Shown one piece after another: positions 14,221 through 64,000 of a DNA stretch of 64,000 nt. Location of the stretch: contig JAYWIR010000010.1 in the NCBI GenBank assembly GCA_036172245.1, forward strand, positions 62,001 through 126,000, in the 5' to 3' direction. Each line of letters starts with the position of its first letter. Within the stretch, counting starts at the first letter, position 1. The notes beneath the pieces were generated by a model that made no database searches, was not told the origin of the DNA, and saw only the letters and a list, made by a program, of their open reading frames with translations. The translations under genes and the position numbers were made by a program. Source of the stretch: Raillietiella orientalis. Taxonomy: Eukaryota.

Positions 14221-14249
14221 AAATGTATACAGCCTGTATTGGGATCTCG

Positions 14250-25834: not shown

Positions 25835-25944
25835 TTGCTGGCTTCCATCTGCAGTCGCTCGCGGACTGGGACGACTTGAAGAGCTCAGTCCGCGAGTTCT
25901 GCAACCAGTTTCCCCTGAACCGTCTCCCTCCAGGTTTCGGCGTT
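25835..25944 (+). mobile_element. Tx1 ORF2 linker fragment
   Basis: LQSLADWDDLKSSVREFCNQFPLNRLPPGFG. Confidence 0.85.
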
Positions 25945-28069
25945 GCCACCCGGGTACGCCCGAGGCGTTTATTCAGAAAAAAAAAACTCTTTATAATTCG
26001 TGGTATAAGGCCCCACTGCGGCCTTAGACACGGGACCTGTCGGGACACCGGGACGCAGCCCGGCGTGGCACTCTTCGACAGCGAAAGGGGATGAAGGAAG
26101 AACAAAAAGAAAAATAAAAGAGATGAACAAACATAAAGAGTTTGGAGGGAAGGGAAGGGATCACTGGACGCTGTGAGGAGGGCCCATCCGTCGAAGGAAG
26201 CCCTCGAGGTCCGTCCGCATACTTCCCAGATAAGACCATCGGGCAGCTCTCCGCAAGAAGCGTACTGCGTGCTGGATGACGTCCCTCTCGTTCCAATCTT
26301 CATCTTCGCTGCTGGCATCGCTCCAAGCCGCCACGATGCCTCGAACGCAGCACAGGGCTGTGAGGGCTGCAGCTGGCTGCAGGGCGTCCCGCACGAAGAG
26401 GAGGCGGAAAATGTCTCTGGGTGCACTGCCCATAGGGAGCCCGAGGGTGGTCCCGAACCGTTCCCAAAGGGGTCGGAGGGCATCACAATCCAATATAAGG
26501 TGGGGAAGCGATTCCCGCTCCCCGCACCTAACACACGCAGGATCAACAGTTCCCCTCGTTCAGTGGAAGCGGCGCGCGTTGCAGGGTAGACCCCAATGCA
26601 ACAGGAGTAACGCCGACTCTTGCCACTTGAGGGGCAGGATCCTGGGTTCCTTCTTCATCACTGGGGGCCACTTCAGCTCATCCAACGGGATGGCGAGCAG
26701 CTCGCCCCATCTCAAGATTCCACGCGGCTGGACGCTCGGGGTGGTGGTGTTTGCCAGTTGACCCATGATCCAGCCGCTCATCTTCTTCTCCCGTCCCTCG
26801 ATGCAGCAAGACACTTGCCACCTTGGCGTCCGGCTGCTGTGAAGCGCCCTCCTTAGGAAGGGCATCGCCGTAGCAAGGCAGGTTGTCTCGGCCCACGTGC
26901 TTGTAGCGGGACTCTCCAAGAGATCCCGCAGCGTGCAGCGAGCGTAGGGGCCGCATCGGAGACGATTCCACGTTTCGTGACTTCTCCGGTTTATCACAGC
27001 CCAGGTGCCGATGTTCTCCTCCATCCAGGCGGAGGAGTTGGCAGAGCTGCAAACCATCCAGCGGTTCTCCATGGCCAGGGTTGCCATGCGCCCAAGCAGT
27101 AGGCCGCATCTTCGGATCTTCCGGCCGGAGCACAGAAGAAAAGACGCGAGTCCCTCGCACCGGGAAACACGGCTGGCGAGGAGGCGGGCCGGAATGCACC
27201 AAGGGGTGCTCCATAGCTTCACTGCGATGGCGAGGGTGCGCCATCGCAGCTGTTTCTCCACGCGCCCTAGCGTCAGGAGGCTGAGACCGCCGTCTCGACG
27301 CAGAGCGCACAAATCCTTCAAAGGGGCTCGGGGCCTCCCCTTGCCCCAAAGGGCGATGCGGAGGAGGTCCTTCGTCCTCTTCTTCACTTCCACGGGGGCG
27401 GGGCAAACAAAAAGCAAGGGGCGGAGGATGGGAACCGCAAACGCGTTATAAACCTCAGCCCGTTCCGGCAAGTGAATCTTGCCTTCCAAAAAGGGGCCGA
27501 TCATTTTGGAGGCAGCTAAACCACGCTTCCGCAGGGGAGTAATCCCCAAACGGCACACCAAGGTACTTGAAACACCTCGCCGTGGGGATCCCAGCCCTGC
27601 TTACGCCGCACCTACTGGCACAACCGACGATTTCGCCCTGTTGACCTGTAGTCCGGACCGGACTACAGGTCAACAGATCTGCTTAGCCGCGGGTCCCGCG
27701 GCTAAGCAGATCGAAGAAATCTCCGACCGCCTTTGCCGTGGTGGACATCGGCAACAAGAGCAGAAGATCGTCGGCATACGCTGCTACGGTGGGCGTGCCG
27801 GGGCACGAGCTCGGCAAGGGGGCCAAAGTCACCCTATATGCTCTCAGCATCAACTCACAGTAGGTGCTGAAGAGCAGGGCACTGAGACTATCAGCTTGCC
27901 TTATGCCCCGCCGCACCGGCACGCCATACACCTTCTGAGTGCTGAAACCGATTGAGATAATCGCGTTCCGCCAGCAAGAGCGCAGCTAGGAAATCAAGGA
28001 GGGTGGAAAGCCCATGCGACCCAGGAGCACCAACAGGAGATTCTGGTCCACGCAGTCGAACGCCTTGTG
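25945..28069 (-). mobile_element. Tx1 element C, 3' half (RT from KAFD onward, zinc finger, 3' UTR); continues at 39259-40140
   Basis: GIRQADSLS, AYADDLL and LPLKWQESALL motifs; 3' terminal motif at 25945-25973. Confidence 0.92.
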
Positions 28070-28163
28070 CGCTCTAGGGTGGACGTGTTTTCTCGGTGCT
28101 CCTCGTGCCAGGAAGTCTCCCCCAGTGCAAGCGTCGTGTGGTTCGGTGGTCGATCAGGCAGCG

Positions 28164-29470
28164 ATGCCTGACGCGACCACCAGGGATGGCCAGGGGGCAG
28201 CGGCAACGCCGCCCTCAGAGGCGATGGAGAGCCAGGGGGCGGCGGCAACGTCGCCCCCAGAGGCGATGGAGGTGGGGGCATCCGCCCCCACAGAATCGGT
28301 CCCCGCTGCAGCGCGGGCGTGGAGCGCAGTTGTGTCGGCGCCATCGCCTGCAGCCACGGCGGAATTGTCGGCCTATGTAGAGGAGGGGTACAACCCCTCA
28401 TTGTTCTACAAGGTAGGCAATTTATATTCTTTAGAGAGCGCGCGCGCCTTCTCGAAGGGCATGCGCGCTCTCGATGTGAAAGAGGAGGAGCTCAGCGCGA
28501 TGACCATCCGCAGCGGGGGTCAGTACGTTGAGGTCATCTGCAAACATGCAGAGCTGGCCCAACGACTGCTTAAAACCCCCGTTGTGATGGGGACGCGCAG
28601 GCTTCTCCCCACTACGGCGGACCGCAGCATGGTGGTCCACCTGTTAGGCGTGACCGCGCGAATGCGCAAAGAACAGGTTCGCGCCGCTTTGGAACAGTTC
28701 GGAACGGTCCACGCGCAGTGGACGAAAGTTAGTCCTTTCGAGGACTACACGGGGCTGCAACACGGCCTCACTGCTGCGCGCGTGACCGTTCGGGAGGGCT
28801 GCACTCTTCCCCACAAACTAGTGGTCGAAGGCGAAACCGTCGACCTCTGGTATGTGGGGAAGCCGAAATACTGTGGCTTCTGCAATACGTCGGGCCACCT
28901 CAAAAAGAGGTGTCCCAATGTGCAGTGCCAAGTATGCGGCACAATGGGCCACACGAGGGAGGTGTGCCCAAAAGCAGCAGTGCGGGTGGTTTCCAAGAGA
29001 AACCTTAAAAAACGCGCCCGGCTTCTGCAGAAAAGACTGGCGGCGAAAGCTGCCGCGAAGGCTGTGCCACCCGCGCCCAAGACCCAGGTTGCACCCGAGA
29101 CCCCGGCGACCAACGCCGAAAAAGTTGAGGGAGCCGACCAGGAGACTGAGTGGCAAGTGGCAACAGCCAAAAAATCAAAGAAGGAGAGGAGGATGGAAAA
29201 GAAAATCGCCTACCAACAGAAGAAGAAAGAGCAGGGAAGCGCGATAATTAAAGAGTGCAGCGTCGTTGTCGAACGCGTTCTCGATGTTGCCGAACGCTGC
29301 CGGAAAGAACTCGCCGCTACCGACGACCTCCCCTCTGTTGACACAGTCAACAGCGAGGGGAGCGAGCCGGCGGCGGCGTCCGTCATCGACACCACCATCG
29401 ATGACGTAGCCTTCGCGCGAGCCGCGGAGGAGCTGGCAGCCTCGTTGCAGCCAGAACCCTCCAAGGCCAG
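28164..29470 (+). CDS. Element A ORF1 (gag-like: RRM-like region, two CCHC knuckles), 5' part; resumes at 35124-35506
   Basis: CGFCNTSGHLKKRC and CQVCGTMGHTREVC. Confidence 0.9.
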
Positions 29471-29561
29471 TTGGAGGACGTGTTTTTCCTTCACTCCCCA
29501 AAGAGTAGTAGGAAAGCGCTTTTTCTTCTGTGTGGTGTTTTGTGTACATCGTCGGTGTCCA

Positions 29562-31312
29562 ATGGCCACGACGCCAGAGGACACCGCGATGGAGGTGGGA
29601 GTGGGGGAGGCTAGTTCGCCCCCACAGCCTACTGGAGCAGGGGCAGCCGCCCCGGAATCATCCCCGGCCACGCCGAGGACATGGAGCGCCATGGTGGCCG
29701 CGCCCAGCGCAGAAGCCATGGCGGAGATGGCCGCATACAAGGCCTCCGGGTACAAGCCATCGCTTGTCTACCAGGTAGGCAACTTGTTCGACGGCCGGAC
29801 AGCGCGCGCCTTCCGCAAAGCGTTGAAGGACGCGAACGTTACTGAGAAGGATCTGGACGGCCTCTCCGTCCTCAGCGGCGGGCAGCGGGTCGAGGTGGTC
29901 TGCAAAGATGTCACCTTGGCTCACCGCCTAATCCATGCGCCGCTGAACGTAGACGGCCGAAAGATCCTGCCAGTATCAATGGACCGCTCCGTGGTGGTCC
30001 ACATGACTGGCATCACCAGCCGCATGACGCGGTCAGCGGTTGGTGAGGAATTAAGAAAGTACGGTGAGGTGCACGCACTGTGGCCGAAACCCTCCATTTT
30101 CGACGGCTTCGATAGCCTTTTTGGTGGGCAGGCTGCAGCGCGGGTGACCGTACGGGAGACTTGTGGGCTTCCCCACAAACTACAGGTGGCGCAAGAAAAC
30201 CTCGACCTGTGGTATGTAGGGAAGCCCCGGTATTGCGGGCATTGTGATACCGTGGGACACCTACGTAAAAGGTGTCCCAATATACAATGCCATTTGTGCG
30301 GGGAGCGGGGCCACGTTCGGCGCGTGTGCCCAAAACGTCCCACCCCGGTTCCCCCTGCCGCGAAAAAAGCGCAGGGGAAACGCGCTTCAAAGGTCTCTAG
30401 ACCTAAAGTGGAAAAGGGCCAGCACAAGCTGCCAACACCTCAACCTCCGGCGCGTAAGCCGGAGGATAAACCTTCTGAAACGGTGGAAGGCGAAGAGGGA
30501 TGGCAGCTTGTAGAGGCCAGAACACCAAGGAAACTCCCACCCGCGGAGAGCAAAGAGCGCAAGACGGCCGGAAAGCCAAAAAAACCCGGTCCGCGCTCGA
30601 AAACTCTGCGCGAGTGCACGGTGGCACTCGAACGAATCGTCGTTCCCGAGATTGCCACCCGGAGCGTCGATCCTCCCCTTGCCGTTTCCGCTGCGCCCGA
30701 GGCTCGCGACGGCGAACCCTCTGTTTACACAGAGGGTGAGCCGCGCGACATAGCGGCGGTCGAAGCCGCGGACGCCGCGTTCGCGCAGGCGGCGGAGGAG
30801 CTCGCGGTCACGCTGGCCGAGCGTGAGAATCCCTCGCGCAAGGCCGTGCGAAGGCCGGCTCCGGCGAGGAAGGCCCCCACAGGTGAGTTAGACCTGGGGG
30901 CCGGAAGCACATCCTCCTCCTCGGAGGCACCCCCCAGGAAGTCGGGACGCAAGTCCCAGAAGCCCAGGAGGCGCCTCCCTCCACCAGCGAGGAGGAGAAG
31001 ACGGAAGCCGTCGCCAGCGTGGGAAATTCGGAGGAGGAATTCCCACGCTCGGAAGCCGTCGATGCGGCCACCCCCATGGAGGAGGGTGAACAGGGGGGTG
31101 AAGTCCCCCCTGCAGGTACCGACCCTGAACAGCCCGCCCCCATGGAGGAGGGCGAACAGGTAGGCGCGACTCCACCTGCGGGTGATCCGGCCGACGCGCC
31201 GGCACCGATGGAGGAGGGGGACCAGGTGCCTTCAGCACCTGACCCCCCTGCTCCACCTAGCGTCTCGCCCCAGCAGGTGGCGGACGCCGCACTGCCATCT
31301 TCCCAGGAGTAA
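29562..31312 (+). CDS. Element B ORF1 (frameshift near 30990)
   Basis: CGHCDTVGHLRKRC and CHLCGERGHVRRVC; PMEEG repeats at the C-terminus. Confidence 0.88.
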
Positions 31313-34300
31313 CACCTGGGCTCGCCAGTCGCCGTCGGATTCGCGCGGCCTGTTGGAATATCAACGGGCTGCGCGACGACGGTAACAGGCGAGATACAGC
31401 TGACACCCTGCGGGAGTTCGACCTGGCCCTGTTGCAGGAGATCCACGTGATCACCGCGGCAGACGTCCAGGAGATCGAGACGATCGCGGGGGGTCGGCTG
31501 TACTGGCAATGCGGCATTCGCAACACCTGCGGGGTCGCGTTCTTCGTGAAGCCGGCCATCGACGCTGCCGTGAAGGGCGTGCGCTTCGATGACGACGGTC
31601 GGGTCGGTCAGCTGACTCTCGGCTGGTCGGACTCGATCGATCTGATCGTCACGAATGTGTACGCCCCCACCGGTCAAAAGGGATACAGCAACCGTACCAG
31701 GCTGCTTGAATCCTTGAAGCGCGACTGGCTGGCGAACACGAGCGTGCGGAAGGCTCACCTGATAGCGGGAGATTTCAATCTCCGCCTGCTAACAGGTGAG
31801 CCGGAAACACAGGTGAACGCGATGAACGAGTTGTGCGCCGCCATGCGTGCGCGCAACTTGTTCGCGGGTGAGGGGAATTGTCCGCAGCATCGACCACGTC
31901 TTCCTCGACGCTGACCTGTGTTCACGGGTCGGCAAACGGGGGAGGGTTGCGTCAACGTTGTCGGACCATTCCCGGTTAATTTTCGAGATGCGGCCTCGCG
32001 ACAAAGGACCGCCATCCAGAGACTGGCGTCTGCCGGGGGACTGGACGCGACTCTCAGGTGCGAAGGAACACCTTCGCGAATACCTGAGAGGCGTCACGCT
32101 CCGGAATCTCCAAGACTGGGACCTTTTCAAGGAATCGGTCCGGGAGTTCTGCGAGCAGTTCCCCCTGGACCGCCTGCCCTCCGGATTCGGCGAGGGTCCT
32201 CGCAACCATCGGGCCTATTTACAGGCCCGAAGGTACGAGCGAACCCCTAATGTCCGTCGCCTGGCCGAGTACCGCGCCGGGGCCGAACGCCAAGTCTGGC
32301 AATCCGGGTCGGCCAGCTTGCTGGACGACCAGGGCCGGGAATGTTCGTCCCCGGCGTCGGTACGGCATCTCGTGCGGAGTTATTATTCCTCCCTTTACGC
32401 CAGGGCGCCCCCGGATCAAGATGCCTCTCGGCTCTTGCTTCCGGATGGTGCTGCGGCAATAGGGGAGGAGGAGTCGTTAAGCCTCGATGAGCCTTTTACC
32501 ACCGGCGAAATTCTCGCCGGTATCAAAAGGCTCAAGAGGCGGAAAGCTCCAGGGGAAGACGGCTTGCCCGCGGAGTTCTATCAGAGCTTCGCGGAAGAGC
32601 TGGCACCCCTGCTGCTTCAGCTGACAAGGCTGATCCGAGACGAAGGCAATGTTCCCGCCTCGTTTCGGTCAGCCAGAGTGAGGCTCCTTCCGAAAGGGGG
32701 AGACCTTAGGAATTTGAACAACTGGCGTCCGATCACGATTGTGAATACGGACGCCAAGTTGGTTGCCGGGCTATGGGCTTCGCGTCTGGGGCAGGTGGCA
32801 GAATCCATTATTAGCCCGGAGCAGACATATGCTGTTCCCGGGCGAAGTATGGATGCCAACCTCTTCTTCGCGAGCACGTGGATGCACGCGCAGAGGTGTC
32901 AAAAGGAAGGAAAAGGAAAAATCGGCAACCCCACTTTGGGGCCGCCAGCAGGGCAGGGAATGGACTCCCGGGCGGGGAAGGGGGCCTTAGCGCTCGCAGT
33001 CGATCTCCATAAGGCGTTCGACTGTGTTGACCAGGGGCTTTTGTTGGAGCTCCTGGGTCGCATGGGCTTCCCACCCTCCTTGATCAACTACCTGCGCTCC
33101 TGCTGGCGCCATGCGATAATTTCCGTCTCTTTCAGCGGTCAGAAGGTGCATGGCGTGCCGGTGCGGCGGGGCATCAGGCAGGGAGATAGCCTGAGTCCCC
33201 TGCTCTTCAGCACCTACTTTGAGTTGGTGCTGAGAGCCTACAGGGTGACTTTGGCCTCCTTGCCTAGCTCGTGTCCTGGCACGCCCGCCGTAGCAGCCTA
33301 TGCCGACGACCTTCTGCTCCTGTTACCTATGTCCACCCCGGCGAAGGCGGTCGGAGACTTCTTCGATCTGCTCAGCCGTGGAACCGGACTGCAGGTCAAC
33401 AGGGCGAAGTCGTCGGTGGTGCCAGTAGGTGCGGCGTGGGCAGGGCAGCAGGACTGGGTCCGTCTGGGGATCCCCACGGCGAGGTGCATCAAGTACCTTG
33501 GTGTGCCGTTGGGTGACTACTCCCCTGCGGAAGCGTGGTCCAGCTGTCTTCAAAAAGTCGAGACGGCGATCGGCCCGTTCCTGGAAGGCAAGTTTCACTT
33601 GCCGGAACGGGCCGCGGTTTGGAACGCCTTCGCGGCCCCCATCCTCCGCCCCTTGCTTTTTGTTTGCCCCGCCACCAGAGAATGCAAAAAGAGGACGAAG
33701 GACCTCCTCCGCATCGCCCTTTGGGGCAAGGGGAGGCCCCGAGTCCCTCTGCAGGACTTGTGCGCTCCGCGTCGGGACGGCGGCCTTGGCCTCCTGACGC
33801 TGGAGCGCGTGGAAATGCAGCTGCGGTGGCGAACCCTCGCCATCGCAGCGAAGATGTGGAGCACCCCTTGGTGCGTTCCGGCCCGCCACCTCGCCAGGCG
33901 TGTGTCCCGATGCGAAGGACTCGCGTCGTTTCTTCTGTGCCCTGGCCGGAAGATCCGAAGATGCGGCCTTATGCTCGGACGCATAGCAACCTTGGCGAAG
34001 ACGAACGGTTGGATGGTTTGTGGCCCCGCCAACTCCTCCGCCTGGTTGGAGGAGTCTGCTGGCACATGGGCTAAGCTGAACCGGAGGAGCGAAAACCACA
34101 TGAACTGCCTGCGAATCGGCCCATACGCCAACCGCACCCTGCGGGAAATACTGGAATTTCCTCGGAGTCGCAGCTGGGCGTTGACGACCCCCCTTGCTAC
34201 GGCGATGCCCTACCTCCTGAGGGCGCTTCAGGATTGCCAGAAGCCGAGGTGGCAAGTCACCTGCCAGATCGCAGGCAGGGAGAAGATGTTACGCGGCTGG

Positions 34301-34906
34301 ACCACAGGAGAACTGGCGGACGCCACGACCCCGAGCGTCCAGCCGCGTGGACTAATGAGATGGGGCGAGCTGCTCGCCATCCCTACGGATGTGCTGAAGT
34401 GGCCCCCGGTACTGAAGGAATCCAGGATCCTGCCCCTTAAGTGGCAAGAGTCGGCGTTGCTTTTGTTGCACTGGGGTCTACCCTGCAACGCGCGCCGCTT
34501 CCACTGGACGAGGGGAGCTGTGGATCCTTTGTGTGCCAGGTGCGGGGAGCGGGAGTCGCTTCCCCACCTTATTGTGGATTGTGCTGCCATCCGACCCCTC
34601 TGGGAACGGTTCGGGGCGACCCTAGGGCTCCCTACGGGCAGCACCCCCAGAGACGTTCTTCGGCCCCTCTTCGGGAAGGACGCACTGCAGCCAGCCGCAG
34701 CCATCGCAGCCTTGTGCTGTGTCCGTGGCATCGTGGCGGCATGGAGCGACGCCAATAACGAAGGAGTGGGTCCACACGCGAGGGATGTCGTCCCATACGC
34801 CCAACGCTTCATGCGGAGAGCTGCCGGATGGCCCCAACTGGGGAATATACGGACGGACCTCGAGGGTTTCCTTCAACGGATGGGCCCTCCTCACAGCGTT
34901 CAGTGA
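31312..34906 (+). CDS. Element B ORF2: APE, RT, zinc finger (one frameshift near 31870)
   Basis: WNING, LQE, NVYAP, AGDFN, IDH, SDH; KAPGEDG, WRPIT, DLHKAFD, GIRQGDSLSP, YADD, KYLG; CARCGERESLPHLIVDC. Confidence 0.95.
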
Positions 34907-35505
34907 TCCCTTCCCTGCCCTCCAACTTCTTTTTGTCTGTTTATGTTTTTTATTTTTCTTTTTGTTTTATCCCCATCCCCCTTCGCTGCTGAGGAACGCT
35001 ACGCTGGGCTGCGTCCCGGCGTCCCGGCAGGTCCAGTGCATATGGCCGTGAGCGGGGCCTTGTACCGCGGATGTAGAGATGTTTTTTTAAAAAATAAACG
35101 CCCCGGGCGTACCCGGGTGTAAACCTCCAAGGCTGGCAAGAAGGCCGTAAGGCGTCCGGCCTCCCCTCAGGAGTCCCCCACTTCCGACCCCGAGGTGGAG
35201 GCCGGAAGCGCAGCCTCCGTTTCTACGGCACCGCGCAAGAAGGCTGGACGTAAGTCCACAAAGCCAAGGAAGCTCGTCTCCCCCGTCGAAGGGGAAGAGA
35301 TGGCTTCCGCAAGCGAGGGTGCCATGAGCGTGGGAAACTCTCGGGACCCGTCGCCCGAGAGACTCCCACGCACGGACACGGAGGGGATGGAGGGGGTGGA
35401 GGCCGAACAGGTGCCTCAGGTGCCTGAGAAGGCCGAAACCCCCATGGACATCCCGCCCGCCTCGAAAGAGGAGGGCTCCCCCACACCTTAATCTTCCCAG
35501 CAGTA

Positions 35506-39052: not shown

Positions 39053-39258
39053 TCCCTTCCCTTACCCTCCCAACTTTTCTTTTCTTTTTTGTTTTTCCCC
39101 CTTCCCCCTGCTGCCGTGGTGGACCGTACCGGTCTGCGAACCGGTGACCCGGCAGGCTCTGTGTTTCTTCGTGCGTGGCTGGAGCAATGGTCCAGCCACC
39201 GCACGTCTTTGTAAAAGTTTATTTTACAATAAACGCCCCGGCGAAATCCAGGTGAAAA

Positions 39259-51036: not shown

Positions 51037-51048
51037 TTGCGACGGCGC

Positions 51049-52277
51049 TCCTGAGAGGGTGGACGTGCTTTTGTGGTGCTCCGCGTTTTTCTCGCGAGTG
51101 TTTTCGGAGTTTTCAGGTTTGAGCGGTTGTTCCTGGGCAGGGATGCCCGAGGACGCCGCAAAGACGGCGGAGGGGGGCGAGCGAGCCTCGTCCCCCCAGC
51201 CCATGGATGTGGGGGCCATCTCCCCCACGGAATCGTCCCCCGCCCCGGCGAGGGCTTGGAGCGCGGTGGTGGCGGCGCCTGCGCCGCCCCCCGCAGAGGA
51301 ACAGCGGGCTTACATGGCCGACGGGTATAACCCGGCCTTGTTATACAAGGTAGGTGGCCTGTACTCCCCCGCGGTATTACGGTCTTTCGCGGCCGAGTTC
51401 AAAAAATTAAAAGTCCCGGAGGACGAAGTCCTCGGACTTTCGGTTAGGAGTGGCGGGCAGCTGGTTGAGCTGAACTGCAAGTCTGCAGGGATGGCTCAGC
51501 AGCTGCTCCGCCTGCCGGTGACCGTGAACGGTCGAAGAATCTTCCCGTTCACGGCGGACAACTCCATCGTTGTCCACCTCACCGGTATTACGATGAGAAT
51601 GGCTAAGACCGCCGTTCGCGAAAGTTTGGAGAAGTTCGGGACGGTCCACGCGTTGTGGGCAAAACCCAATGTCCTGGGTTACACCAGGGCATTCAGTGGT
51701 TACGCCGCTGCGCGCGTGACGGTACGTGCCGAGGGTGGGCTACCCCACAGACTGCAGGTCGGGGAGGAGGAGATCGACCTGTGGTATGCGGGGAAACCCG
51801 TATACTGAGGCTTTTGCCAGGTGTCGGGGCACCTGAAGAAGAAATGCCCCAACATCGTGTGCTTGGGCTGCGGCGGAAAGGGGCACATCAGGCGGATGTG
51901 CCCCAACAGAAAAAGGTCAGTTCCTACAGGCGCGAGGAAAGCAGACACGCCGAAGGAACAGGACCGGAGCCACGAAATGGCAGAAACCCACCCTGCCGAC
52001 CAACCCGCTGCTCAGCCATCCTCCAGCGAACAACCAGCTGGAGAAAGCGCCGAGAATGAGGAAGGTTGGCAGAAGGTGGAGAAGAAGAAAAAGGCGCCGA
52101 AGAAGGAGGTCAAACGGATCAACAAGGCGGCACCGCTGAAGAAGAAGCAGGTGATCCGCGCTTGTTCGGTGAAAATCGAACGCGTATCGGTCATAAAAAC
52201 CGCGGAAAAAATAGCGGTAAAACCGATCGATACCGTCGAATCCGCGCCGATCGCGCCCGCCGTGACGTCACCGCGGT
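51049..52277 (+). mobile_element. Tx1 family F, 5' part with partial ORF1
   Basis: 5' motif at 51061; ATG at 51143; stop codon in the first knuckle. Confidence 0.88.
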
Positions 52278-52365
52278 GAGTGGACGTGTTTTTTCGGTGC
52301 TCCGGAAAACCGTCTGTTTTTGCTGGTGTTTGTGGGTTTTTCAGCGCGGTTGTTCCTGGGCAGAA

Positions 52366-54111: not shown

Positions 54112-55825
54112 ATAAACCTATGGGTGGGCTCGCCTGCTGCCGTCGCTTGCGAATTACTTGTTGGAACGTCAACGGGTTGAGCAACGACGGCGAGAGGCGA
54201 GACGTAGCCGCCATACTGCGAGACTTCGACCTGGCTCTACTGCAAGAGACCCACGTGCTCACAGCAGAGGCAGGCCAGGATTTCGAGAGGATCGCAGGGG
54301 GCAGGCTACTGTGGAGGAACGGAACAGATCACTCCTGCGGAGTGGCCTTTTTGCTGAAGCCGTCCGTCGAAAACTCACTGCGTAGTGCACGGTTCGACGG
54401 GGACGGTCGAGTTGGGCAGCTTGTTCTCAAGTGGTCCGACTCGATCGACCTCGTGGTCATGAACCTGTACGCTCCGGTGGGCAGCCACAGGGCCGAGGAA
54501 CGCACTGCGTTCTTCGAATCCCTGCGGCGAGACTGGTTGGCCGAAGCAGGCGTGCGAAGGGCGCACCTCATTGCGGGCGATTTCAATCTCCGCCTGCTGG
54601 CAGGTGCGCCCAACCGACGAGCACAGCTGGTCAACGAGTTGTGCGCAGCAATGAATGCGCGCAACTTGTTGGCCGGTGATGCCGGGAGAGATCGGAACAT
54701 CGACCACATGTTCCTCGACAACCACCTGTGCACGCGGGTGGGAACTCGAGGAACGCTCCCGGCAGAGCTGTCCGACCATCCACGGCTCGTGCTCGAGTTA
54801 CATCCGCGCAATAAGGGCCCTCCCCTGAAAACATGGCGCCTGCCAGGGGATTGGTTGCGCCTCGAAGGAGCGGCGGAACATCTACGCTCCTTCCTGCGAG
54901 GATTCCAGCTTCAGACGCTCGCGGACTGGGACGAAATGAAGTGCTCAGTCCGCGAGTTTTGCGACCAGTTTCCCCTGGAACGTCTTCCGCCGGGCTTCGG
55001 CGATGGGGTCAGGAACGAGCGGGCCTACCTTCAGGCCCGCCGGTATTCCAGGCGTCCCGACGTCCGTCGCTTGGCGGAATTCGAAGCTGAGGCGGAGAGG
55101 CAGGCCTGGCAGTCAGGCTCGGCCTGCTTGCTGGACCATCAGGGCCAAGAACACTCCAGCCCAGCTCAGGTAAGCCGCATCGTGCGGGAGTTTTATTCCT
55201 CCTTCTACGCGCCGTTAACACCGGAGCGCCATTTAGCGCAGCGCCTGCTGCCGGATGGCCTCCCCGCGCTCAAGGAGGAGGATCGTTTCAGGTTGGCAGA
55301 ACCGTTCACGATGGTGGAGGTCGTCTCCGCCATCAGCAGGCTGAAGAATAGGAAGGCACCAGGGGAGGACGGCCTGCCCGCGGAGTTTTACCATCGCTTC
55401 GCGCCAGAGCTGGCCCCCCTGGTGCTCAGGTTAAGTACGCTGATCCGCGAACACGGCGAAGTTCCCGCCTCGTTCCGGTCAGCAAAAGTATGTCTCCTGC
55501 CGAAGTCAGGAGACTTACGCAACATTGGCAACTGGCGTCCCATCACAGTGGTGAATGCGGACGCAAAGTGCATGCCAAGTTGTGGGCTGAGCGTTTGGGG
55601 CGGGTGGCCGCTTCCGTGATCAGTCGGGAGCAGACCTACGCTGTTCCCGGACGAAGCATGGAGTCAAACCTGCTCCTCGCCAGCACATGGTGGCAGTTGC
55701 GACAACGCGTTGCCCAGGAAGGTCAAGGGAGTCTTGCGCTCCCCTCTGACCAGGAACATCGGATAGAGGGTGGGAGGGACTCGGCGGAACCTTTGCAGTC
55801 GCGGTCGACTTGCACAAAGCATTCA

Positions 55826-56479
55826 AATCCAATGGCAAACCTACAACTCAGAAATTGGCAAATGGACATACTTAAGATCATCAGAACCACACCAGACGAA
55901 AGGAAAATATACTGGTTCTATGACCCAGTAGGAGGAATCGGCAAAACCACTTTCGCCAAATTCCTGTACCTTAAAAAATCAGCAATCTACATGCGCAGCT
56001 GCAAGAAAGCTGATGCAGCACACATTTATCATGGCGAAAGGATCATAGTTGTAGACCTGACAAGAGACAACCAAGAAATAATTCAATATGGATTCATAGA
56101 GACATTGAAAAACGGAATCATCTTCGATTCCAAGTATCAAGGTTCCATCAAATACTTCGAGCCTCCACACATACTAGTCTTCAGTAACTGGGAACCTGAC
56201 TACTCCAAGATGTCCAGTGATAGATGGATTGTCAAGAACATAAGCAAATCCGAACCAACCAAATTGTGTCCATGGATGATTGATGACACAGGACTCGTGC
56301 TCCCTTGGGCCTGCCCTTCAGGCCCTAGTACAGGGCAGTCCCGAGACTCACCCGACTCCTCATGCTCCACTTTGTCACCCCCTCGCCAGAACTTGATAAA
56401 TAAAAATACATCCCATTGCAAGTTTTGCATTTTTCAAGTATACAGGGGAGGGTCTCTTAGATGTTTGAATTCCACATAA
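55826..56479 (+). CDS. rep: Rep C-terminal SF3 helicase half
   Basis: Walker A DPVGGIGKT, Walker B IVVDLTR, motif C VFSN, Arg finger SSDRW; motif style resembles nanovirus/alphasatellite-like Reps. Confidence 0.93.
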   Translation, partial: NPMANLQLRNWQMDILKIIRTTPDERKIYWFYDPVGGIGKTTFAKFLYLKKSAIYMRSCKKADAAHIYHGERIIVVDLTRDNQEIIQYGFIETLKNGIIFDSKYQGSIKYFEPPHILVFSNWEPDYSKMSSDRWIVKNISKSEPTKLCPWMIDDTGLVLPWACPSGPSTGQSRDSPDSSCSTLSPPRQNLINKNTSHCKFCIFQVYRGGSLRCLNST

Positions 56480-57459
56480 AACGTTCGAGTCAGTCTATAA
56501 ATAGGCCAACCCTGAGTTAGCCTTCCGTTTTTAGGACATACACCAGACTGACATCCTTCCCTTATCGAATCTGGAATATCCACACCTGACATATGCTTCA
56601 TTACATGCATACGATTCATAAACATTTCCACCAGCAACTCTTGATCCAAACGAGAACCAAAACCACAATCAACCCAAGGACAACGCACATAGCGCTCCAA
56701 ATTCCCTCCATAACAATGCATATCCTTCCTTATATACGCCCTGGAATACAGCCGTATTCCACGAACACCAAAATAACGAACTAAACATCCGCTCGTCTCC
56801 TTATGACCACTTATCACATCTTCCACCTTGTGATAAGGCATTCCTGCAAGCGATCCAAAAAATTCACCCTGATTGTGCGACTGATACAATAAAAGATTCC
56901 GATAAGACACTTTCATTCCAAACTCTTCCGCCATATTTCCTATCGTTAAACCCAAAGACAGCGGTTCGATCTTCATAGACATTCCACGCAACCGCACATA
57001 TCGGTAATAACGACCAAACTCTTGCAAATTCAACTCAGTCAGTATACTTTGCAGATTTCCAGCACTCTCACAATACGTAAACATCCAAGAGCAATTTACA
57101 TAATCCCCGTCAGCGGACCTCAAAGACGCATAATGCTGCGCATTTAACATTATATCACGCGATACCACGCGCCTCGCACGAGACAAACGACCACGCGGAC
57201 TCCGATACAATCGCAAACGCCGACGACGATTATACGGACGTCTACGCTTCTTGAAAGTCGAATAGCCAGTGCGAGCTACACGCCTACGCTTCCCAGTTAC
57301 ACTCGACGACTTCACGCGAAATCGCTTACGACCGCGACTGAGCAGCACGTGCAGCCATCTCACCGGTCGACCTTCAACTGACGTCACCCATCCCCTTCCC
57401 CCGTATACTCCTACTCTGGCGGGTGCGCGCGCACCCGTCCGACTTACTAAGCCTTCCAC
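56434..57459 (-). CDS. cap: Putative capsid protein (start codon uncertain)
   Basis: Open frame of 341 codons; Arg-rich N-terminus (KKRRRPYNRRRRLR); C-terminal FYVEFK; opposite strand to rep. Confidence 0.85.
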   Translation of the reverse strand: MEGLVSRTGARAPARVGVYGGRGWVTSVEGRPVRWLHVLLSRGRKRFRVKSSSVTGKRRRVARTGYSTFKKRRRPYNRRRRLRLYRSPRGRLSRARRVVSRDIMLNAQHYASLRSADGDYVNCSWMFTYCESAGNLQSILTELNLQEFGRYYRYVRLRGMSMKIEPLSLGLTIGNMAEEFGMKVSYRNLLLYQSHNQGEFFGSLAGMPYHKVEDVISGHKETSGCLVRYFGVRGIRLYSRAYIRKDMHCYGGNLERYVRCPWVDCGFGSRLDQELLVEMFMNRMHVMKHMSGVDIPDSIREGCQSGVCPKNGRLTQGWPIYRLTRTFYVEFKHLRDPPLYT

Positions 57460-57600
57460 GAGGTCGGATCATGCCACGACCTGCACACGTGGACAAGTAC
57501 ATCTTGTTCCGCATTCCTAAGTCTTCCACGACTGCGGACGAAGACCAGACACCCTCATAAAAAACTTGCAACATCGACACAATTTCCAAGGTTGTGCCCT

Positions 57601-57632
57601 ATGCAATCTGGGTAATACTAACCAGATTGCAT
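57601..57632 (-). promoter_or_regulatory. Rolling-circle origin stem-loop
   Basis: 11-bp stem ATGCAATCTGG/CCAGATTGCAT; loop reads TAGTATTAC on the minus strand (57612-57620). Confidence 0.95.
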
Positions 57633-57716
57633 CTATTGCGCAGTTGGTGAGTATTTATACCGCCACACATTGAGGCACAAACCAGTCTCACCTCGACAGA
57701 ATTACCTGCAGTAACC

Positions 57717-58270
57717 ATGCCTTACGGACACTTTCTCTACTGGTGTTTTACATTGTGCAACTACCTCGAAGAACTGCAACAGATCAAGGATTGGTGCAGA
57801 CGACAATGCACATACGCCGTCATCGGAAAGGAAACAGCCACAACGGGTACACCACACCTCCAAGGCTATTTCCAATTACGCGATCCACGCACCTTGCCAA
57901 GCCTTAAACGACCTCCGTTCGAGAAAGCCCATCTCGAACGAGCAAAAGGATCTCCGCAGAGCAACTTACGGTACTGCACGAAAGAGGACCACCAAGCATG
58001 GACATACGGTCTAATTCAAGACCACAAAGAAACCACAGACTACCAGGACATGGTAATTATTTTATTCACAATAAAAAAAACTAATAATTTACTATATTCC
58101 AGATACTCCAACTCATAAAAAACGGAGCCACTGAGCTCGACATACTCGAACAACACACAAAATTTTATTCAAAAAATATCAACTTTGTCAAGGAGTGCTT
58201 CCGTTTAACAAGGAGCAGAACACATCCTAATCCCATGTACGATTTACAACTCCAGAACTGGCAAATGGAC
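57717..58270 (+). CDS. rep: Rep N-terminal HUH endonuclease half with a 50-nt intron (58053-58102)
   Basis: Motifs CFTLCN, PHLQG, YCTK; removing GTAATT..CTAAT..TTCCAG restores the frame to ILQLIKNG..NWQMD. Confidence 0.9.
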
Positions 58271-60380
58271 TGGCGTCGATGTCAGACTGCGTCGACCAGG
58301 AACTCCTTTTGGAGCTCCTGGAACGCATGGGTTTCCCGGCAGTGCTCCAGTCCTACCTGCGCTCCTGCTGGCGCAACGCGTCAATAAATATTGGTTTCAG
58401 CGGCCGGCACGTGTACGGCGTGCCAGTGCGCCGCGGTATCCGGCAGGGTGACAGCCTGAGCCCCTTGCTCTTCAGCATCTACTTCGAGTTGGTGCTGAGG
58501 GCATACAGGGTAACTCTGGCAACCCTGCCGAGCTCGTGTGCCGGAACGCCTGCCGTGTCGGCCTATGCAGACGATCTTCTGCTGCTGCTTCCCGGATCCA
58601 CCCCGGCGAGTGCGCTCGAGGACTTCTTCGAGTTGCTGCGCCGCGGGACGGGCCTGGAGGTGAACAGGGCGAAGTCGTCCATGGTCTCTGTCGGTTCGGC
58701 GTGGGCTGGACGGTCGGACTGGATCCGCTTGGGGATCCCCACGGGCAGGTGCTTCAAGTACCTCGGCGTACCGTTGGGGGACTTCTGCGCAGCAGAAGCC
58801 TGGTCCGACCGTCTCCAAAAGGCAGCGTTGGCGATCGGTCCGTTCCAAGAAGGCAAGTTCTACTTGCAGGAACGGGCCGCGGTGTGGAACGCGTTTGCGG
58901 TTCCCCTCCTTCGCCCCCTACTTTTTGTTTGCCCCGCCCCTTATTTTATCCGAAAACGAGCAGCGGGCCTCCTGAGGACAGTCCTTTGGGGCAAAGGGAG
59001 GTCCCGTGTGAGGCTCAAAGACTTGTGCGCTCCACGTAAGGACGGTGGACTTGGCGTTCTTACGCTGGAGCGCATGGAACTACAACTTGGATTCAGAACT
59101 CTTGCCCTTGTGGCGGAATTGTGGGACACGCCTTGGTGCGTTCCAGCACGCCTCCTGGCCCAACGAGCCTGCGGAATCGGCGGACTTTTGTCGTTTCTGT
59201 CTGCGCGCGTCTGCAGAAGACCATACTGTGGCTCTATGCTGCGACGCATCTTCGTTGCGGTCCGGGAGAACGCCTGGATCTCCTCCCTACCAGGGAACTA
59301 CTCTGCCTGGTTGCACGACTCAGTGTCCACCTGGGAAAAGATCCACGTTCCGGCGGGCACAAGGAACACTTGCCTGAAAAGGCACGCACGCTGGACGCTG
59401 CAGGAGATCGTGCAGTCCCACGACAAGCTTCCGTGGGCCTTGATAACCCCCTTCGCCCCAGTGCTGCCCTTCCTTGTGAATGCCAGGGACAGTAGCGAGC
59501 AGGGGAAATGGACCGTGTCCTGCACCATAGGCGGCAGGACACAATCGATAAAGGCGTGGACATCTCGGCAGCTAGCTGACGCTGCGACGCCGAGTGTCCC
59601 GCCCAACGGAATTCGACGCTGGGGAGAGCTACTCGGACTATCCCCGGAGGAGATGAAGTGGCCCCCAGCGTCCTGAAACAGTGCATCCCTCCCCCTGAAA
59701 TGGCAGGATGTGGCGTTGCTTGTGGTACTCTGGGGATTATCATTCAAAGCACGCCTGCATCACACCACCCGGAGGGCTGTGGATCCTAATTGTGACCGGT
59801 GTGGGGAAAAAGAAACATTCCCCCACCTTCTCCTTGAGTGTAGCGCCCTCCGCCCTTTGTGGGATCGTCTCGCGGCGATCCTGGACTTGCGCGGATGCGG
59901 CCCAAAGGACGTTTTCAGCCGCCTCTTCTGTAGTGACGCCTTGTCCCCGCCCGCTAGTGTAGCAGTCCTCTGCTGCATCAGAGGAATAGTGGCGGCTTGG
60001 AACGCCACCAGAAGAAGGCGTCAGCCAACCGGCAACGCCTTACACTGGATTCGCCTTTTCGCGCGCAGTGTCTGCAAGTGGCGTTACTTAGGCGCTGAAA
60101 GGACTCAGCTTGTCCGGGTCCTGAATAGGATCTAGAGGACCTGCCCACGCGCACCGTGATCCCTTCCCTGTCCTCCCACCCCTAAAACATTCGTTCCCCC
60201 CACAACTTTTTGTTTCTTTTTGTTTGTTATTTCCCATCCCCGCGCATCGGAAGGACCTCTCCGGCATGCAGCCGGTAACCAGCAAGCTGTTTTGGAGTGG
60301 TGAACCGTGGGGTTTGCCACGCGACATTTCCTGTATTTTTATTTCACTGAAATGAATGCCCCGGCACATCCGGGTGTGAA

Positions 60381-61665
60381 TCGCCACGGCGCGCTTCACC
60401 ATGGACGACCGGAGGCTCATGCCTTCGCAGATCCTCCTCGGTGACGTCGTCGTCTATCTGCGGTTTGCCGGACAAACCCCAGCTTGCCGCAACTGCGGGA
60501 AGGAGGGCCACCGTCCGCGGAAGTGCCCAACACGCAGTTGCCGATACTGTAAGCTGCTCGGCCACTCGATTAACGAGTGCGCCTAGGTAAAACGAAAGAG
60601 GGCGAGAAACCCGCGAAAGGCAAGCCGGCCACGGCGAGCCGAACGGCGGCAAAGGCTGAAAAGCCTCGCGCGATCTCAAAGGATCCCGCCACTCTGCTTG
60701 CACCTTCCGGTAAAAAGGTGCAAAAGGCAGCAGTGGCGACGGACGCACTGGCCGCCATCGCCGCATCGGAGGCCTTGGAAAGGATGCGGAGGACCCTGGA
60801 AGCCCTCGCGCCCAACCGAGGCAAACCGGAAGGCGGCGAGGATGGATTCGTCGGGGGAAGGAAGAAGGAGCGCAAACCGCGCGATCCTTCCCACTTCCCC
60901 ATTATAAAGGTAGGCGGGGTCAAGAGGCAGCCTCGCGCGCCAAAGAAGGCGCAAGAAAAAGCCTCCGCTGCCGTCGCGCGCGCCGTCGCAAACACCCGCG
61001 GCGAGAGGGCAGCTGCCGACGCCGCGACTCCGAAAGGGGGAACGGCGACGAAGGCACCCTCCGAGAATGCTGGACCAGCTCCGAATTGCCAGCAGAAGAA
61101 GAGGCAGGCGAAACGCCCGCCGCACGCGCGGAATTCGGACTTCGAGGTGGAGTCCGAAGGCAGCGCTCGCCAAGCCCCGGTCAAGGCCAGGGCTGCGCGC
61201 AAGCGGAAACTTGCCAGGCAAGAGCCTGATGCCGGGAACGGTTCCCGATGCTCCTCGGAGCCCGAGGCAATGGTCCTCGACTCCACCGAACCAGCCGCGA
61301 GCGGCGCGGAGGAGACAGGAAGCGCTTGCGTTCCCCCATCCGCCGTGCTCCCGGCTGATGCCTCGCCGGACGGGGCGAGGAACGCGCCTCCATGTCCGTA
61401 GCAGCAATGCGCGGTCTCGCTTCTTGTCGTGGCGTCCGAGTGGCCTGTTGGAACGTCAACGGGCTGCAGTACAATGAGAAGAGGCGATTGGTTGCCAACG
61501 TCTTGCGCGACTTCGATCTGGCCCTGCTGCAGGACATTCACGCACTCTCCGAACAGCAAGCGGCCGATCTGGCAGTTCGTGCAGGCGGGACGCTCCATTG
61601 GAGGTCAGACTCCTAGAATACCAGCGGAGTAGAATTCCTAGTCCGGGACAGGTTGGCGGGGGAAT
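60381..61665 (+). mobile_element. Family E-like element: 3' part of ORF1 and APE start (target of family F)
   Basis: CRNCGKEGHRPRKC, CRYCKLLGHSINEC, WNVNG. Confidence 0.88.
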
Positions 61666-64000
61666 TGGAATGTCAACGGGCGACGTGCCGACGGCAGCAG
61701 ACGTGATGCAGCCACAACCCGCGAGAGTGCGACCTGGCCCTACTGTAGGAGATCCACGAGATCACCGCGGCAGACATCCAGAAGATCGAAACGATCGCGG
61801 GGATTCGCCTGTACTGCCAATGCGACGCCCGCAACACTTGTGGGGTCGCGTTATTTGTTAGGCCAGCAGTCGACGCTGCCGTGAAGGGCGTGTGGTTTGA
61901 TGACGGTCGGGTCGGCCTGCTGATTCTCAGGTGGTCCGACTCGATCGACTTAATCGTCACAAACGTGTATACCCCAGGGTCAAACAGGGGTACCGCGACC
62001 GTACCAGGTTGCTGGAAAGCCTGAAGAGCGACTTGCAGGCGGACACGAATGTGCGAAAGGCTCACCTGATGGCGGGCAGGTACGCTGGTCAGCCACTGCA
62101 AGAGATCGTTTCCAACCCACGGAAACTTCTGTTCGCTTTTTTCAGTCCCCTTGCCCCGTGCTGCCCTTCCTTACAGAAGCTAGGGACAGCCAAGAGGAGG
62201 CTTGTTACGAAGTGTCCTGCCTCATCGTAGGCAGGAAAAAACCAATGAAGGCGTGGACGTCCCGGGAACTAGCGGACGCTACAACCCCAAGTGTCCCGCC
62301 AAGTTGTGCGCTGGGGCGAGCTGCTCGGCATGCCTCCGGAGGAGGTGAAGTGGCTCCCGGCGTATTGGGACAGTGGCACCCTACCTTTGGATTGGCAGGA
62401 GACGGCGCTGCTTGTGCTCCCTTGGAGTCTTTTGAGCAGAGCGCGCTTGACTCACTGGACATTGGGGAGACTGGATGCCCATTGTACAGTGTGAGAAAAG
62501 GGAGACCTTCCCCCACTTACTCATCGAATGTGTTGCCCTCCGCCGAACGTGGGATCGACTCTCGTCGGCCATAAACGTAGCGGTGGGCGACCCTAAAAAC
62601 ATTTTTCGTTGCCTCTTGATGCGGAACTCCCTGCCAGGTGCCGCGTGTGTTGCAGTTCTCTGCTGCATACGAGGACTTCTGGACAAGTGGAACGCGTCGA
62701 TAAGAGGCCACAGCAGTCGGAATGCCATTCACTGGGCAGTGATCTCCTTGGAGAAGGTTTGCCATTGGCGTCGACTCAAGAAACATTTGCCAGTACTTGT
62801 TCGCATCCGGAACCGGATGCAGAGGCCTCCTCACGGCGTACCGTGATCCCCTCCCTTCCCCCCCCCCCCGCCCAAAGAACATTGCTCCCCCCAGCCGTTT
62901 TTCTTTGTTTTATTTTTGTTTTTTCCCGCCCCTGCGCCAGTGTGGAGGACCTTATCGGCCTGAGAGTAAGGACAAGTGCCCCAATACAGGCAAAAACTTC
63001 TTAAGTGACGTAAAAAAGAAAAACATTCTTAACAAAAAAAAGACTTCATTATCGAATTTTTTCTCAATGTAAAAAATTATAATAATAAAAGCTCCGGCTC
63101 ACCCGGGTGAAAAACCTGATAGCGGGAGATTTGAATCTCCGCCTGCTAACAGGTGAGCCCGAAACACAAGAGAACGTGAAAGTAGGTATGGAGGCCAACC
63201 TTTTCTTCGCGAGCACACGGTGTCAGGTGCAGAGTTGTGAACATAAATGAGAGCGTGTGGAAGGCTACCCCACTTTGGGGGCGCCGGCCGGGCAGGAAAG
63301 GGAAACTAGGGCGGGGAATGGGGCCCTAGCGATCGCGGTCGAACTCCACAAGGCGTTCGACTGCGTGGACCAGGAACTTCTCTTGGAGATCCTGGGTCGC
63401 ATGGGCTTCCCTCCCTCCCTACTAGCCTACCTGCGCTCCTGCTGGCGCAGCGCCATAATCAACGCCTCTTTCAGCACTCCACAGGTGTAGGCCGTGCCGG
63501 TGCGGCGGAGCATGCGGTAGGGCGATAGCCTGAGTCCCCTGCTCTTTAGCACCTACTTTGAGTTCGTGCTCAGAGCGTACAGGGTGACTTTGGCTGCCTT
63601 GCCTAGCTCGTGCCCCGGCACGCCCGCTGTAGCTGCATACGCAGACGATCTTCTGCTGATGTTGCCCATGTCCGCCCCGGCAGCCGCAGTCGAGGATTTC
63701 TTCGATCTGCTAAGCCGTGGGACTGGACTGCAGGTAAGCAAGGCGAAGTCGTCGGTGGTAGCGGTGGGTGCGATGTGGGTTGGACGGCCTGACTGGATCC
63801 GCTTGGGGATCCCCACGGCCAGGTACCTGAAGTACCTGGGTGTCCCGTTGGGGGACTTCTGCCTCGCAGAAGCCTGGTCAGGTCGTCTCCAAAAAGTGGA
63901 GTTGGCATTCGGGCCGTTCCTGGAAGGCAAGTTCCTTCTGCCGGAACGGGCCGCGGTGTGGAACGCGTTCGCGGCTCCCATCCTACGCCCCCTGCTTTTT
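61666..64000 (+). mobile_element. Degenerate B-like ORF2 (APE and RT, internally deleted), interrupted by element G
   Basis: APE segment similar to 31350-31820; LAIAVELHKAFDCVDQ, YADD and KYLG after 63300. Confidence 0.85.
62077..63113 (+). mobile_element. 5'-truncated Tx1 element G inserted at the APE 'HLIAGDFN' motif
   Basis: TSD ACCTGAT(G/A)GCGGG at 62064-62076 and 63114-63126; 3' motif at 63084-63113. Confidence 0.9.

Follow-up and report, generated by a model that had tools for sequence, protein, structure and literature searches.

A nested island of L1/Tx1-superfamily retrotransposons in Raillietiella orientalis with a recurrently broken site in the reverse transcriptase gene

The stretch of DNA analysed here (the window) comprises 64,000 nucleotides of Raillietiella orientalis (GenBank assembly GCA_036172245.1, contig JAYWIR010000010.1, positions 62,001 to 126,000 of the forward strand), and its part from 25.8 to 64 kb is an island made only of long interspersed nuclear elements (LINEs). 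At least 14 copies or fragments are present from four sibling families, which include: (i) the A type (A and A'), (ii) the B type (B, C, C' and I), (iii) the E type (E, E2, K and probably M), and (iv) the H type (H, J, D and, distantly, G, with H0 having the 5' end in common). The elements are stacked up to four deep, as D contains C, C contains A and A contains B. The GC content rises from 29% at 1-6 kb to ~60% from 26 kb on, with a dip to 47% at 56-58 kb. The map of the island (Table 1) is based on self-BLAST, tblastn searches against element B and direct reading of the junctions. Most of the island is as random insertion would produce; the non-random exception is a single position in the reverse transcriptase (RT) gene, at the codons for Lys-Ala-Phe-Asp (KAFD).

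By their predicted proteins, the elements are GC-rich non-long-terminal-repeat retrotransposons of the L1/Tx1 superfamily, with an apurinic endonuclease-like (APE) domain and an RT. Full-length copies are ~5.6 kb long, start with ...GGACGTGTTTT... and finish with AATAAAYGYCCCGG...GGTG..AA(A). In a sample of 15 long stop-to-stop open reading frames (ORFs), RVT_1 was matched in five (up to 81.5 bits, cut-off 29.6) and Exo_endo_phos in two (45.6 and 53.1 bits, cut-off 24.5). Matches to zf-RVT, C-terminal of the RT (26.2 and 20.8 bits, cut-off 27.5), and to zf-CCHC in ORF1 (19.9 and 19.7 bits, cut-off 20.8) all fall under their cut-offs; the ORF1 translations show two CX2CX4HX4C motifs each. Element B carries one frameshift, between APE and RT. 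Its RT has one relative of 68% identity, from a JGI metagenome, which is uninterrupted at the KAFD codons, and the remaining relatives are at most 35% identical. The best named relative of B is a 'transposon TX1 149 kDa protein' of Alligator (155 bits, 30% identity), equalled by human L1 ORF2p, the best solved relative (154 bits); because of these equal scores, the elements are assigned to the L1/Tx1 superfamily as a whole and not to the Tx1 clade. A protein search with ORF1 of A and its upstream read-through found no ORF1 relatives at E<=1e-5. Hallmarks of target-primed reverse transcription (TPRT) are present in the form of six pairs of target-site duplications (TSDs) of 10-14 bp and a 3'-terminal sequence that all 3' ends have in common, and five copies are 5'-truncated (M, J, G, I and C). 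Rfam and tRNA scans of the window gave no matches to ribozymes, other Rfam families or tRNAs.

The KAFD codons lie directly after the motif-A aspartate of the RT. Seven RT copies span these codons, and three are broken within 2 nt of one position, ...AAGGCGTTCGA|C on the RT-sense strand, by three agents: A (in C), A' (at C') and a viral insert (in H). C stops at ...AAGGCGTTCGA and restarts with the same 11-14 nt beyond the 11.2-kb insert of A with B inside it. C' starts at the break nucleotide of C, where it adjoins the 5' end of A' in the same antisense relative orientation. H stops at ...AAAGCATTC(A) and restarts exactly at GACTGCG after the virus and a 14-nt filler; this break, at a distance of 2 nt from the first-strand nick of the A type, shows neither a TSD nor lost sequence. 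The junction ends of C, C' and H read ...TTCGA or ...TTC(A). Both A-type 5' modules of the window (2/2, a small sample) lie at this same nucleotide in antisense orientation. The codons are intact in the four other copies (B, A, E and I). When 12 simulated events were placed at random along a 5.6-kb element and counted as coincident within 2 nt, any coincident pair arose with P=0.057, two separate coincidences with P=0.0011 and a triple coincidence with P=1.4e-4. At its own KAFD codons (37165-37185) A has AAAGCATTCGATTGCG, where the B-like targets that are occupied have AAGGCGTTCGACTGCG; none of the three differences changes an amino acid, and they could conceivably spare A from its own lineage.

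The two A-type junctions were compared for signs of a single duplicated locus. Over the first 1 kb, A and A' are identical at 931 of 991 positions (94%), and the host RT next to the junction is identical between C and C' at 57 of 58. Over the next 312 nt the identity of C and C' is 257/312 (82.4%), while in the same columns C and B are 85.9% and C' and B 83.7% identical, so that C' resembles C no more than it resembles B, an unrelated member of the family. The difference between flank and element is pronounced (Fisher test, p=4e-9), as is that between the leader and the rest of the flank (p=6e-4). The switch from 57/58 to 82% is sharp and occurs at ~60 nt, the near-identical stretch of C' being ~58-64 nt long (to ~48706). 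Past ~1.1 kb, A' is just 70% identical to A. Because the likeness of A' to A ends there, what the two junctions share by descent is a ~1.1-kb 5' module with a ~58-nt leader of antisense RT, not a duplicated locus; this block lies in register in two different host RTs. A block duplication is disfavoured because the element is 94% identical and the flank 82.4%, and the comparison argues for repeated homing over such a duplication. One reading in which C is ORF2 of A', as parts of a single mosaic element running from 48642 to 25947, was rejected: B is matched at 70% identity by the APE start adjacent to A' but at 80-90% by C, and D, at the 3' end of C, is not a KAFD flank. A protein search with the upstream read-through, made to find other 5' flanks of A-type elements, had no match at E<=1e-5. 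The shared 5'-end motif was matched by one contig of 1326 nt in a metagenome scan; its ORFs are unrelated by eye and no RT adjoins the match, which is taken as chance.

The third agent at the KAFD codons is a 2.4-kb insert within the RT of H that is, by its predicted proteins and stem-loop, a near-complete, ambisense circovirus-like genome of the circular Rep-encoding single-stranded (CRESS) DNA viruses. The insert is circularly permuted and slightly over one genome length. Viral_Rep, the Rep nuclease, is matched at 60 bits (Pfam cut-off 26) and the Rep helicase with its P-loop as RNA_helicase at 22.3 bits (cut-off 21.5); the motifs of the HUH nuclease domain and of the superfamily 3 (SF3) helicase P-loop are visible in the translation. 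The helicase part runs on the + strand from 55826 and the nuclease part on the + strand from 57651 onward. The predicted Cap is a 344-codon ORF with an Arg-rich N-terminus on the opposite strand (57468-56434), with a weak family match (Circo_capsid, 18.2 bits, cut-off 36.2). The stem-loop nonamer TAGTATTAC lies on the - strand at 57612-57620. The reading frame of rep changes at a short AT-rich GT..AG segment, a putative intron. Among 55 candidate relatives of Rep, seven matched at E<=0.001, the best at 41% identity and one of them named Cressdnaviricota sp.; scans of IMG/VR found no relatives of either Rep part.

The viral insert is flanked by 42-nt terminal repeats (55826-55867 and 58229-58270), both in frame and just ~74% identical. 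Since there is no TSD and the 14-nt filler looks templated, the virus was probably captured by end-joining at an A-type nick or break. Integration mediated by Rep was rejected, as the junctions lie inside rep and not at the nonamer. At the nicked 3' end, the attached viral strand is the one complementary to the strand with TAGTATTAC, so that the viral copy may derive from target-primed synthesis around the circular viral genome. Neither end-joining nor this circle-priming idea accounts for the unequal terminal repeats. A 5'-end-like motif at 58217 (- strand), considered as the mark of a LINE in H, is a chance match inside the viral insert. The virus also corrects the preliminary description of this DNA, in which no other class of transposable element (TE) had been recognised.

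A second case of re-use concerns H-type elements. H and J share 95.3% identity, and each has at its 3' end the same 12-bp stretch of E-like ORF1 sequence (10/12 identical), the sequence after H-type 3' ends reading TYGCSACGGCGC. The intact 5' end of H0 follows directly after the left copy of this 12-bp sequence (S), which gives the arrangement [J][12 bp][H0+H][12 bp][E2]. J and then H0+H look like two successive insertions at one regenerated TSD, with one nick in E-like ORF1 apparently used by both. One 12-bp TSD encloses H0+H and none surrounds H alone within H0, which is why H0+H probably moved as one chimaeric unit formed by template switching or read-through. Insertion positions recur within the window, at the KAFD codons (3/7 copies) and at the nick shared by J and H0+H, contrary to the non-recurrence that the preliminary description named as grounds for its refutation. 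Of its proposal that sibling families use each other as targets, it is likely that one lineage or more re-uses a site, and a whole community of mutually targeting families is not shown by these data.

All six insertions listed in the preliminary description lie where it placed them and have direct repeats at both ends when the exact coordinates are read. The TSDs, described as uniformly 12-14 bp, measure 10-14 bp and go beyond what chance would give. They are: (i) for A (28070-39258) in the RT of C, 28056-28069 and 39259-39272, 14 bp with one mismatch (11 bp exact); (ii) for B (29468-35123) in ORF1 of A, 29458-29467 and 35124-35133, 10 bp exact; (iii) for E (41237-47454), antisense in ORF1 of A', 41225-41236 and 47455-47466, 12 bp with two mismatches; (iv) for M (44592-45004, exactly as first described), antisense in the RT of E, 13 bp exact; (v) for G (62077-63114), which splits the LIAG|DFN codons of the B-like copy I, 12 bp with one mismatch; and (vi) for H0+H (51049-60380), called F in the preliminary description, a 12-bp repeat with two mismatches at 51037-51048 and 60381-60392. 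The placing of this last insertion in E-like ORF1 holds for the flanking repeat, which matches that sequence, and not for the context of the left copy, which lies between the 3' end of J and the 5' end of H0. The six insertions arose by ordinary TPRT with staggered nicks of 10-14 bp.

No motif common to the six TSD targets was seen by direct comparison, and a single nick motif for all insertions was dropped, as none was seen across the junctions. Among the copies in the window, no shared target was found within the B, E, H-like G or M families, whose flanks differ. The B-type targets are ORF1 of A (for B), the RT of D at amino acid (aa) 126 (for C) and the APE of E2 (for I); the E-type targets are ORF1 of A' (for E) and non-LINE DNA, where an E-like 3' end lies at 16350-16442. 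Three junctions (E in A', B in A and H after H0) fall within ~250 bp in the homologous C-terminal third of ORF1, at 41225-41236/47455-47466, 29263-29467 and ~52262, in different sequences; this clustering is mild and was noticed post hoc. The proposal that B in A and H in H0 share one ORF1 site was rejected, since their sequences differ and H alone has no TSD, the positions being within ~250 bp. The preliminary description had taken it as a sign of targeting that insertions always fall in the coding sequence of a sibling. No such signal is present: 5248 of the 5656 nt of B are coding (92.8%), and six of six random insertions would land in coding sequence with a probability of 0.928^6 = 0.64. 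The pattern is uninformative because the island is almost wholly LINE and LINEs are ~93% coding; left of the island, the non-LINE DNA at 9-23 kb also carries at least five LINE fragments.

An independent sequencing run (X1), which contains 0.11 of the sampled words, placed 522 contigs on 39000-58999 at >=80% likeness; what is present among the contigs listed is used here, and absences are not interpreted. One of these contigs joins 44592 to 45019, and is an E-like copy without M. A second reaches from 55754 to 58288 over the viral insert, with unread letters in between. A third, of 485 nt, spans J, S and H0 with 16 differences.

Table 1. Features of the LINE island, in positions of the window.
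Feature	Positions	Strand	Basis and remarks
D: H-like RT fragment, ~aa 89-126, left edge of island	25840..25946	+	tblastn; 84.9% identical to H; hosts C 3' end
C 3' half: B-like RT aa 395-1026 and 3' untranslated region (UTR), stops at KAFD codons	25947..28069	-	80.3% to B over 2158 bp; junction read
A 5' part: 5' UTR and N-terminal two thirds of ORF1	28070..29467	+	tblastn, junctions; 5' motif GGACGTGTTTT at 28081
B: full-length (5' UTR, ORF1 with two CCHC knuckles, APE, RT, 3' UTR)	29468..35123	+	domains, tblastn, TSD
A 3' part: ORF1 C-terminus, APE, RT, zf-RVT-like region, 3' end ...GGTGAAAA	35124..39258	+	domains, tblastn, junctions
C 5' half: B-like RT aa 100-399	39259..40138	-	89.6% identical to B; starts with right TSD copy
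Patch with palindromic joint and K	40139..40622	.	self-BLAST, tblastn, direct reading
K: E-like RT fragment aa 718-850, without either end	40225-40617	+	tblastn
A' downstream part: ORF1 C-terminus and APE start	40606..41236	-	just 70% identical to A
E: full-length, interrupted by M	41237..47454	+	tblastn, junctions, TSD
M: 5'-truncated 3'-UTR piece in E RT	44592..45004	-	13-bp exact TSD
A' 5' module: 5' UTR and ORF1 N-terminus	47455..48642	-	94% identical to A over first 1 kb
C': B-like RT aa 395-523, starts at KAFD codons	48643..49019	+	junction reading; alignment with C
J: 5'-truncated H-type copy, RT aa 429 to 3' end	49020..51036	+	95.3% identical to H
S, left copy: TTGCGACGGCGC, E-like ORF1 sequence	51037..51048	+	direct reading, match
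H0: 5' UTR and part of ORF1	51049..52262	+	77% to H 5' part; joined to H without own TSD
H 5' part: 5' UTR, ORF1, APE, RT to codons KAF	52263..55825	+	domains, tblastn, junctions
CRESS-DNA (circovirus-like) insert	55826..58270	.	Pfam, stem-loop, terminal repeats, GC dip 0.47
14-nt filler at virus/RT joint	58271..58284	+	direct reading; resembles RT ~24 nt upstream of break
H 3' part: RT from GACTGCG (codon D of KAFD) to 3' end	58285..60380	+	tblastn, junctions
E2: E-like ORF1/APE fragment	60381..61662	+	matches, TSD; starts with right S copy 60381-60392; hosts H0+H and I
I part 1: B-like APE, 5'-truncated	61665..62076	+	match to B
G: 5'-truncated distant H-like copy in AGDFN codons of I	62077..63114	+	junction, TSD; 67% identical
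I part 2: APE end, internal deletion, RT with intact KAFD site at 63350	63115..64000	+	leaves window

Parts of the island are rearranged. A palindromic joint at 40190-40232 (CCGCCTCCTAGCGTCC..GGCGGACGCTAGGAGG), between the truncated 5' end of C and K, looks like a fold-back or rearrangement scar. Element I has an internal deletion of ~1 kb at 63179-63186 (B coordinates 2355 to 3380), by which the N-terminal third of the RT is gone. The junctions without resolvable ends are the patch at 40139-40622, the 5' end of C, the 3' end of A' and the joint of C' with J. A stop-free frame of 1057 codons at 27990-31163 (+ strand) is an accident of nesting; it passes from antisense RT of C through the 5' UTR and ORF1 of A to the 5' UTR and the entire ORF1 of B.

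The DNA left of the island holds LINE fragments at 9051-9194, 10295-10665, 16350-16442, 17928-18600 and 22914-23233, which are older and more AT-rich, and the related contigs of run X1 carry C>T and G>A differences in excess. Because of the AT-rich older fragments and this excess, the GC-rich elements are suggested to decay toward the AT-rich background. Two repeat pairs without a Pfam match are present: a direct pair (13385-14242 and 23678-24526, 83%) and an inverted pair (15734-16126 and 25837-25470, 79%), the latter adjoining the left edge of the island. Among 75 ORFs scanned at 1-26 kb, the sole non-TE domain above threshold is CAP_N, the N-terminal domain of cyclase-associated protein (36.7 bits, cut-off 27), in an ORF at 24555-25052 (- strand) that may be a host gene exon beside the island.

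The best overall explanation, which is judged somewhat probable, combines random nesting by TPRT with homing of A-type elements to the KAFD codons, capture of the virus and re-use of a nick by H-type elements. Homing of the A-type lineage to this site, in the manner of LINEs specific to ribosomal DNA or to Tx1D, has about an even chance when taken by itself. The A-type element would be transcribed with ~60 nt of host RT as a leader, and the nick at GTTCGA|C on the RT-sense strand would be made by an endonuclease that the element encodes. The leader would then pair with the RT of a new host, such that the 5' junction is sealed in register by homology, and a virus could subsequently enter at the same nick or break by end-joining. 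Such homing would leave antisense RT in register upstream of A-type copies and TCGAACGCC downstream, with A-type 3' ends adjoined by TCGAACGCCTT. The full combination, in which hyperparasitic A-type elements home by a leader, the virus enters through an element-made nick and H-type elements re-use a TSD to build a self-extending island, possibly a centromeric cluster like those of Zepp, is put forward tentatively and is more doubtful than probable.

Several observations weigh against A-type homing and the events tied to it. Just two A-type copies are present in the window, and A' keeps its 5' junction only, with neither its 3' end nor the second half of C' present. The APE regions of A and A' diverge by ~30%, and a shared endonuclease specificity is not evident for this reason; leader homology by itself could account for the position of the A' 5' end. 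I has a perfect KAFD site and B and E have near-perfect ones, yet none of these is occupied. The viral break is without a TSD and 2 nt from the nick of A, a coincidence with a chance of ~1e-3 for a single pre-named site, and the ~74% identity of the viral terminal repeats fits no simple capture model. The 5' junction of J with C' has no explanation, and duplication of a block with later gene conversion at either side, while unparsimonious, could also yield the A-type junctions.

The island may instead have accumulated passively in a heterochromatic or centromere-like dump of low recombination, the shared junctions being due to local duplication, ectopic gene conversion or chance. This explanation, which is rather unlikely, accommodates the absence of a common motif among the six TSD targets, the fit of the coding pattern to a random model (P=0.64), the LINE fragments in non-LINE DNA at 9-23 kb, the signs that the region rearranges (the palindromic joint and the internal deletion in I) and the four of seven copies with intact KAFD codons. 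Duplication predicts equal divergence of element and flank, however, and the 94% and 82.4% observed differ (p=4e-9), with C' as close to B as to C; also against passive accumulation are the abrupt fall from 57/58 to 82% at ~60 nt and an unrelated third insert, the virus, within 2 nt of the same position (simulated triple, P=1.4e-4).

An improbable alternative dispenses with a site-specific nick: one chance founder insertion at the KAFD codons (that of A in C, or of an ancestor) would have given the lineage a transcription start further upstream and with it the antisense RT leader, after which later copies would nick anywhere, the leader would pair with an RT nearby and fix the 5' junction only, and the virus would be coincidental. 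The co-inheritance of the ~58-nt leader with the A-type module, the strong divergence of A and A' in APE, the lack of a recognisable 3' junction of A' and the composite nature of H0+H, by which chimaeric units are seen to move here, are all consistent with such joining. It is opposed by the insertion of A itself, which has a clean 14-bp TSD at the KAFD codons with C continuous on both sides; because of this TSD, the first nick of A, and not merely its 5' end, lies at the site. A founder A further predicts that A' would be alike throughout, and the likeness covers just ~1.1 kb, while the coincidence of the virus would have a chance of ~1e-3. Misassembly of related LINE copies into false nests is very improbable: the copies in this highly repetitive region reach 80-95% identity and the patch at 40139-40622 has an odd palindromic joint, yet six inserts have matching TSDs with host frames that continue exactly across them, and contigs of run X1 back the empty site of M and the joint of J, S and H0.

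Nested piles of LINEs are ordinary, and Zepp is a known case of LINE clusters that grow on copies of themselves. If A-type homing holds, a LINE with a fixed target in the catalytic-motif codons of other LINEs would be a parasite of parasites that follows the logic of the elements homing to ribosomal DNA (rDNA), and the victim elements would be unable to change the KAFD target without loss of function. It would also provide a natural pair of endonuclease and RNA with a defined GC-rich target of 14 bp, and would make the mechanism of self-growing, perhaps centromere-forming, TE islands directly testable. The virus, if it entered at this nick, would offer a rare view, at single-base resolution, of germline entry by a non-retroviral DNA virus. 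A keyword search of open-access text found no LINE that targets the RT-motif codons of a sibling, which is not proof of absence.

Among known systems, the island resembles by description the clusters of Zepp and ZeppL, elements of the L1 clade in the green algae Coccomyxa and Chlamydomonas, in that GC-rich LINEs are nested and 5'-truncated copies are present. In published accounts, these clusters are 1.5-42 kb long and grow by targeting existing copies, the elements have 61% GC and are GC-rich relative to the genome, many copies are 5'-truncated, and there is one cluster per chromosome, at putative centromeres (PMC8226300, PMC3446292). By contrast with the Zepp arrays, which consist mostly of the 3' ends of one family, the island has four sibling families with several full-length copies in both orientations, and most of its targets are unrelated sequences.

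The Tx1L element of Xenopus is likewise a LINE of APE type with a defined target sequence inside another mobile element. It is reported that Tx1L inserts specifically into the Tx1D transposon, that its endonuclease recognises ~10 bp around the nick and that insertion of R1 is site-specific (PMC1919474). The target of Tx1L is a DNA transposon, whereas that of the A-type elements would be the RT gene of a sibling LINE, with a specificity read from two copies. R1 and R2 are co-transcribed with their rDNA target, and the upstream target sequence in their RNA aids formation of the 5' junction; R2 uses a restriction-like endonuclease and a ribozyme. The A-type elements would share with R1 and R2 a target that is unable to mutate away, a 5' sequence derived from the target and 5' joints that are in register. 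They differ from R2 in that no Rfam family, ribozymes included, was found in the window, and their target would be another parasite and not a host gene.

The viral insert is comparable to endogenous circoviral elements, which also place circovirus-derived germline DNA next to or inside a LINE. In a published account, circoviral elements are embedded in LINE-1 in carnivores, tandem full-length genomes occur in cyprinid fish, integrations longer than one genome are known, and association with a LINE is put forward to explain later amplification (PMC6372831). What sets the present insert apart is a near-complete ambisense genome exactly at a LINE nick hotspot. For the composite units, the parallel is L1. 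This element makes chimaeric retrocopies by template switching and also transduces 5' sequences, and both H0+H and the leader of the A-type elements fit these processes. The partners in L1 chimaeras are small nuclear RNAs or unique flanks; those in the island would be sibling LINE RNAs or antisense sequence of the host LINE.

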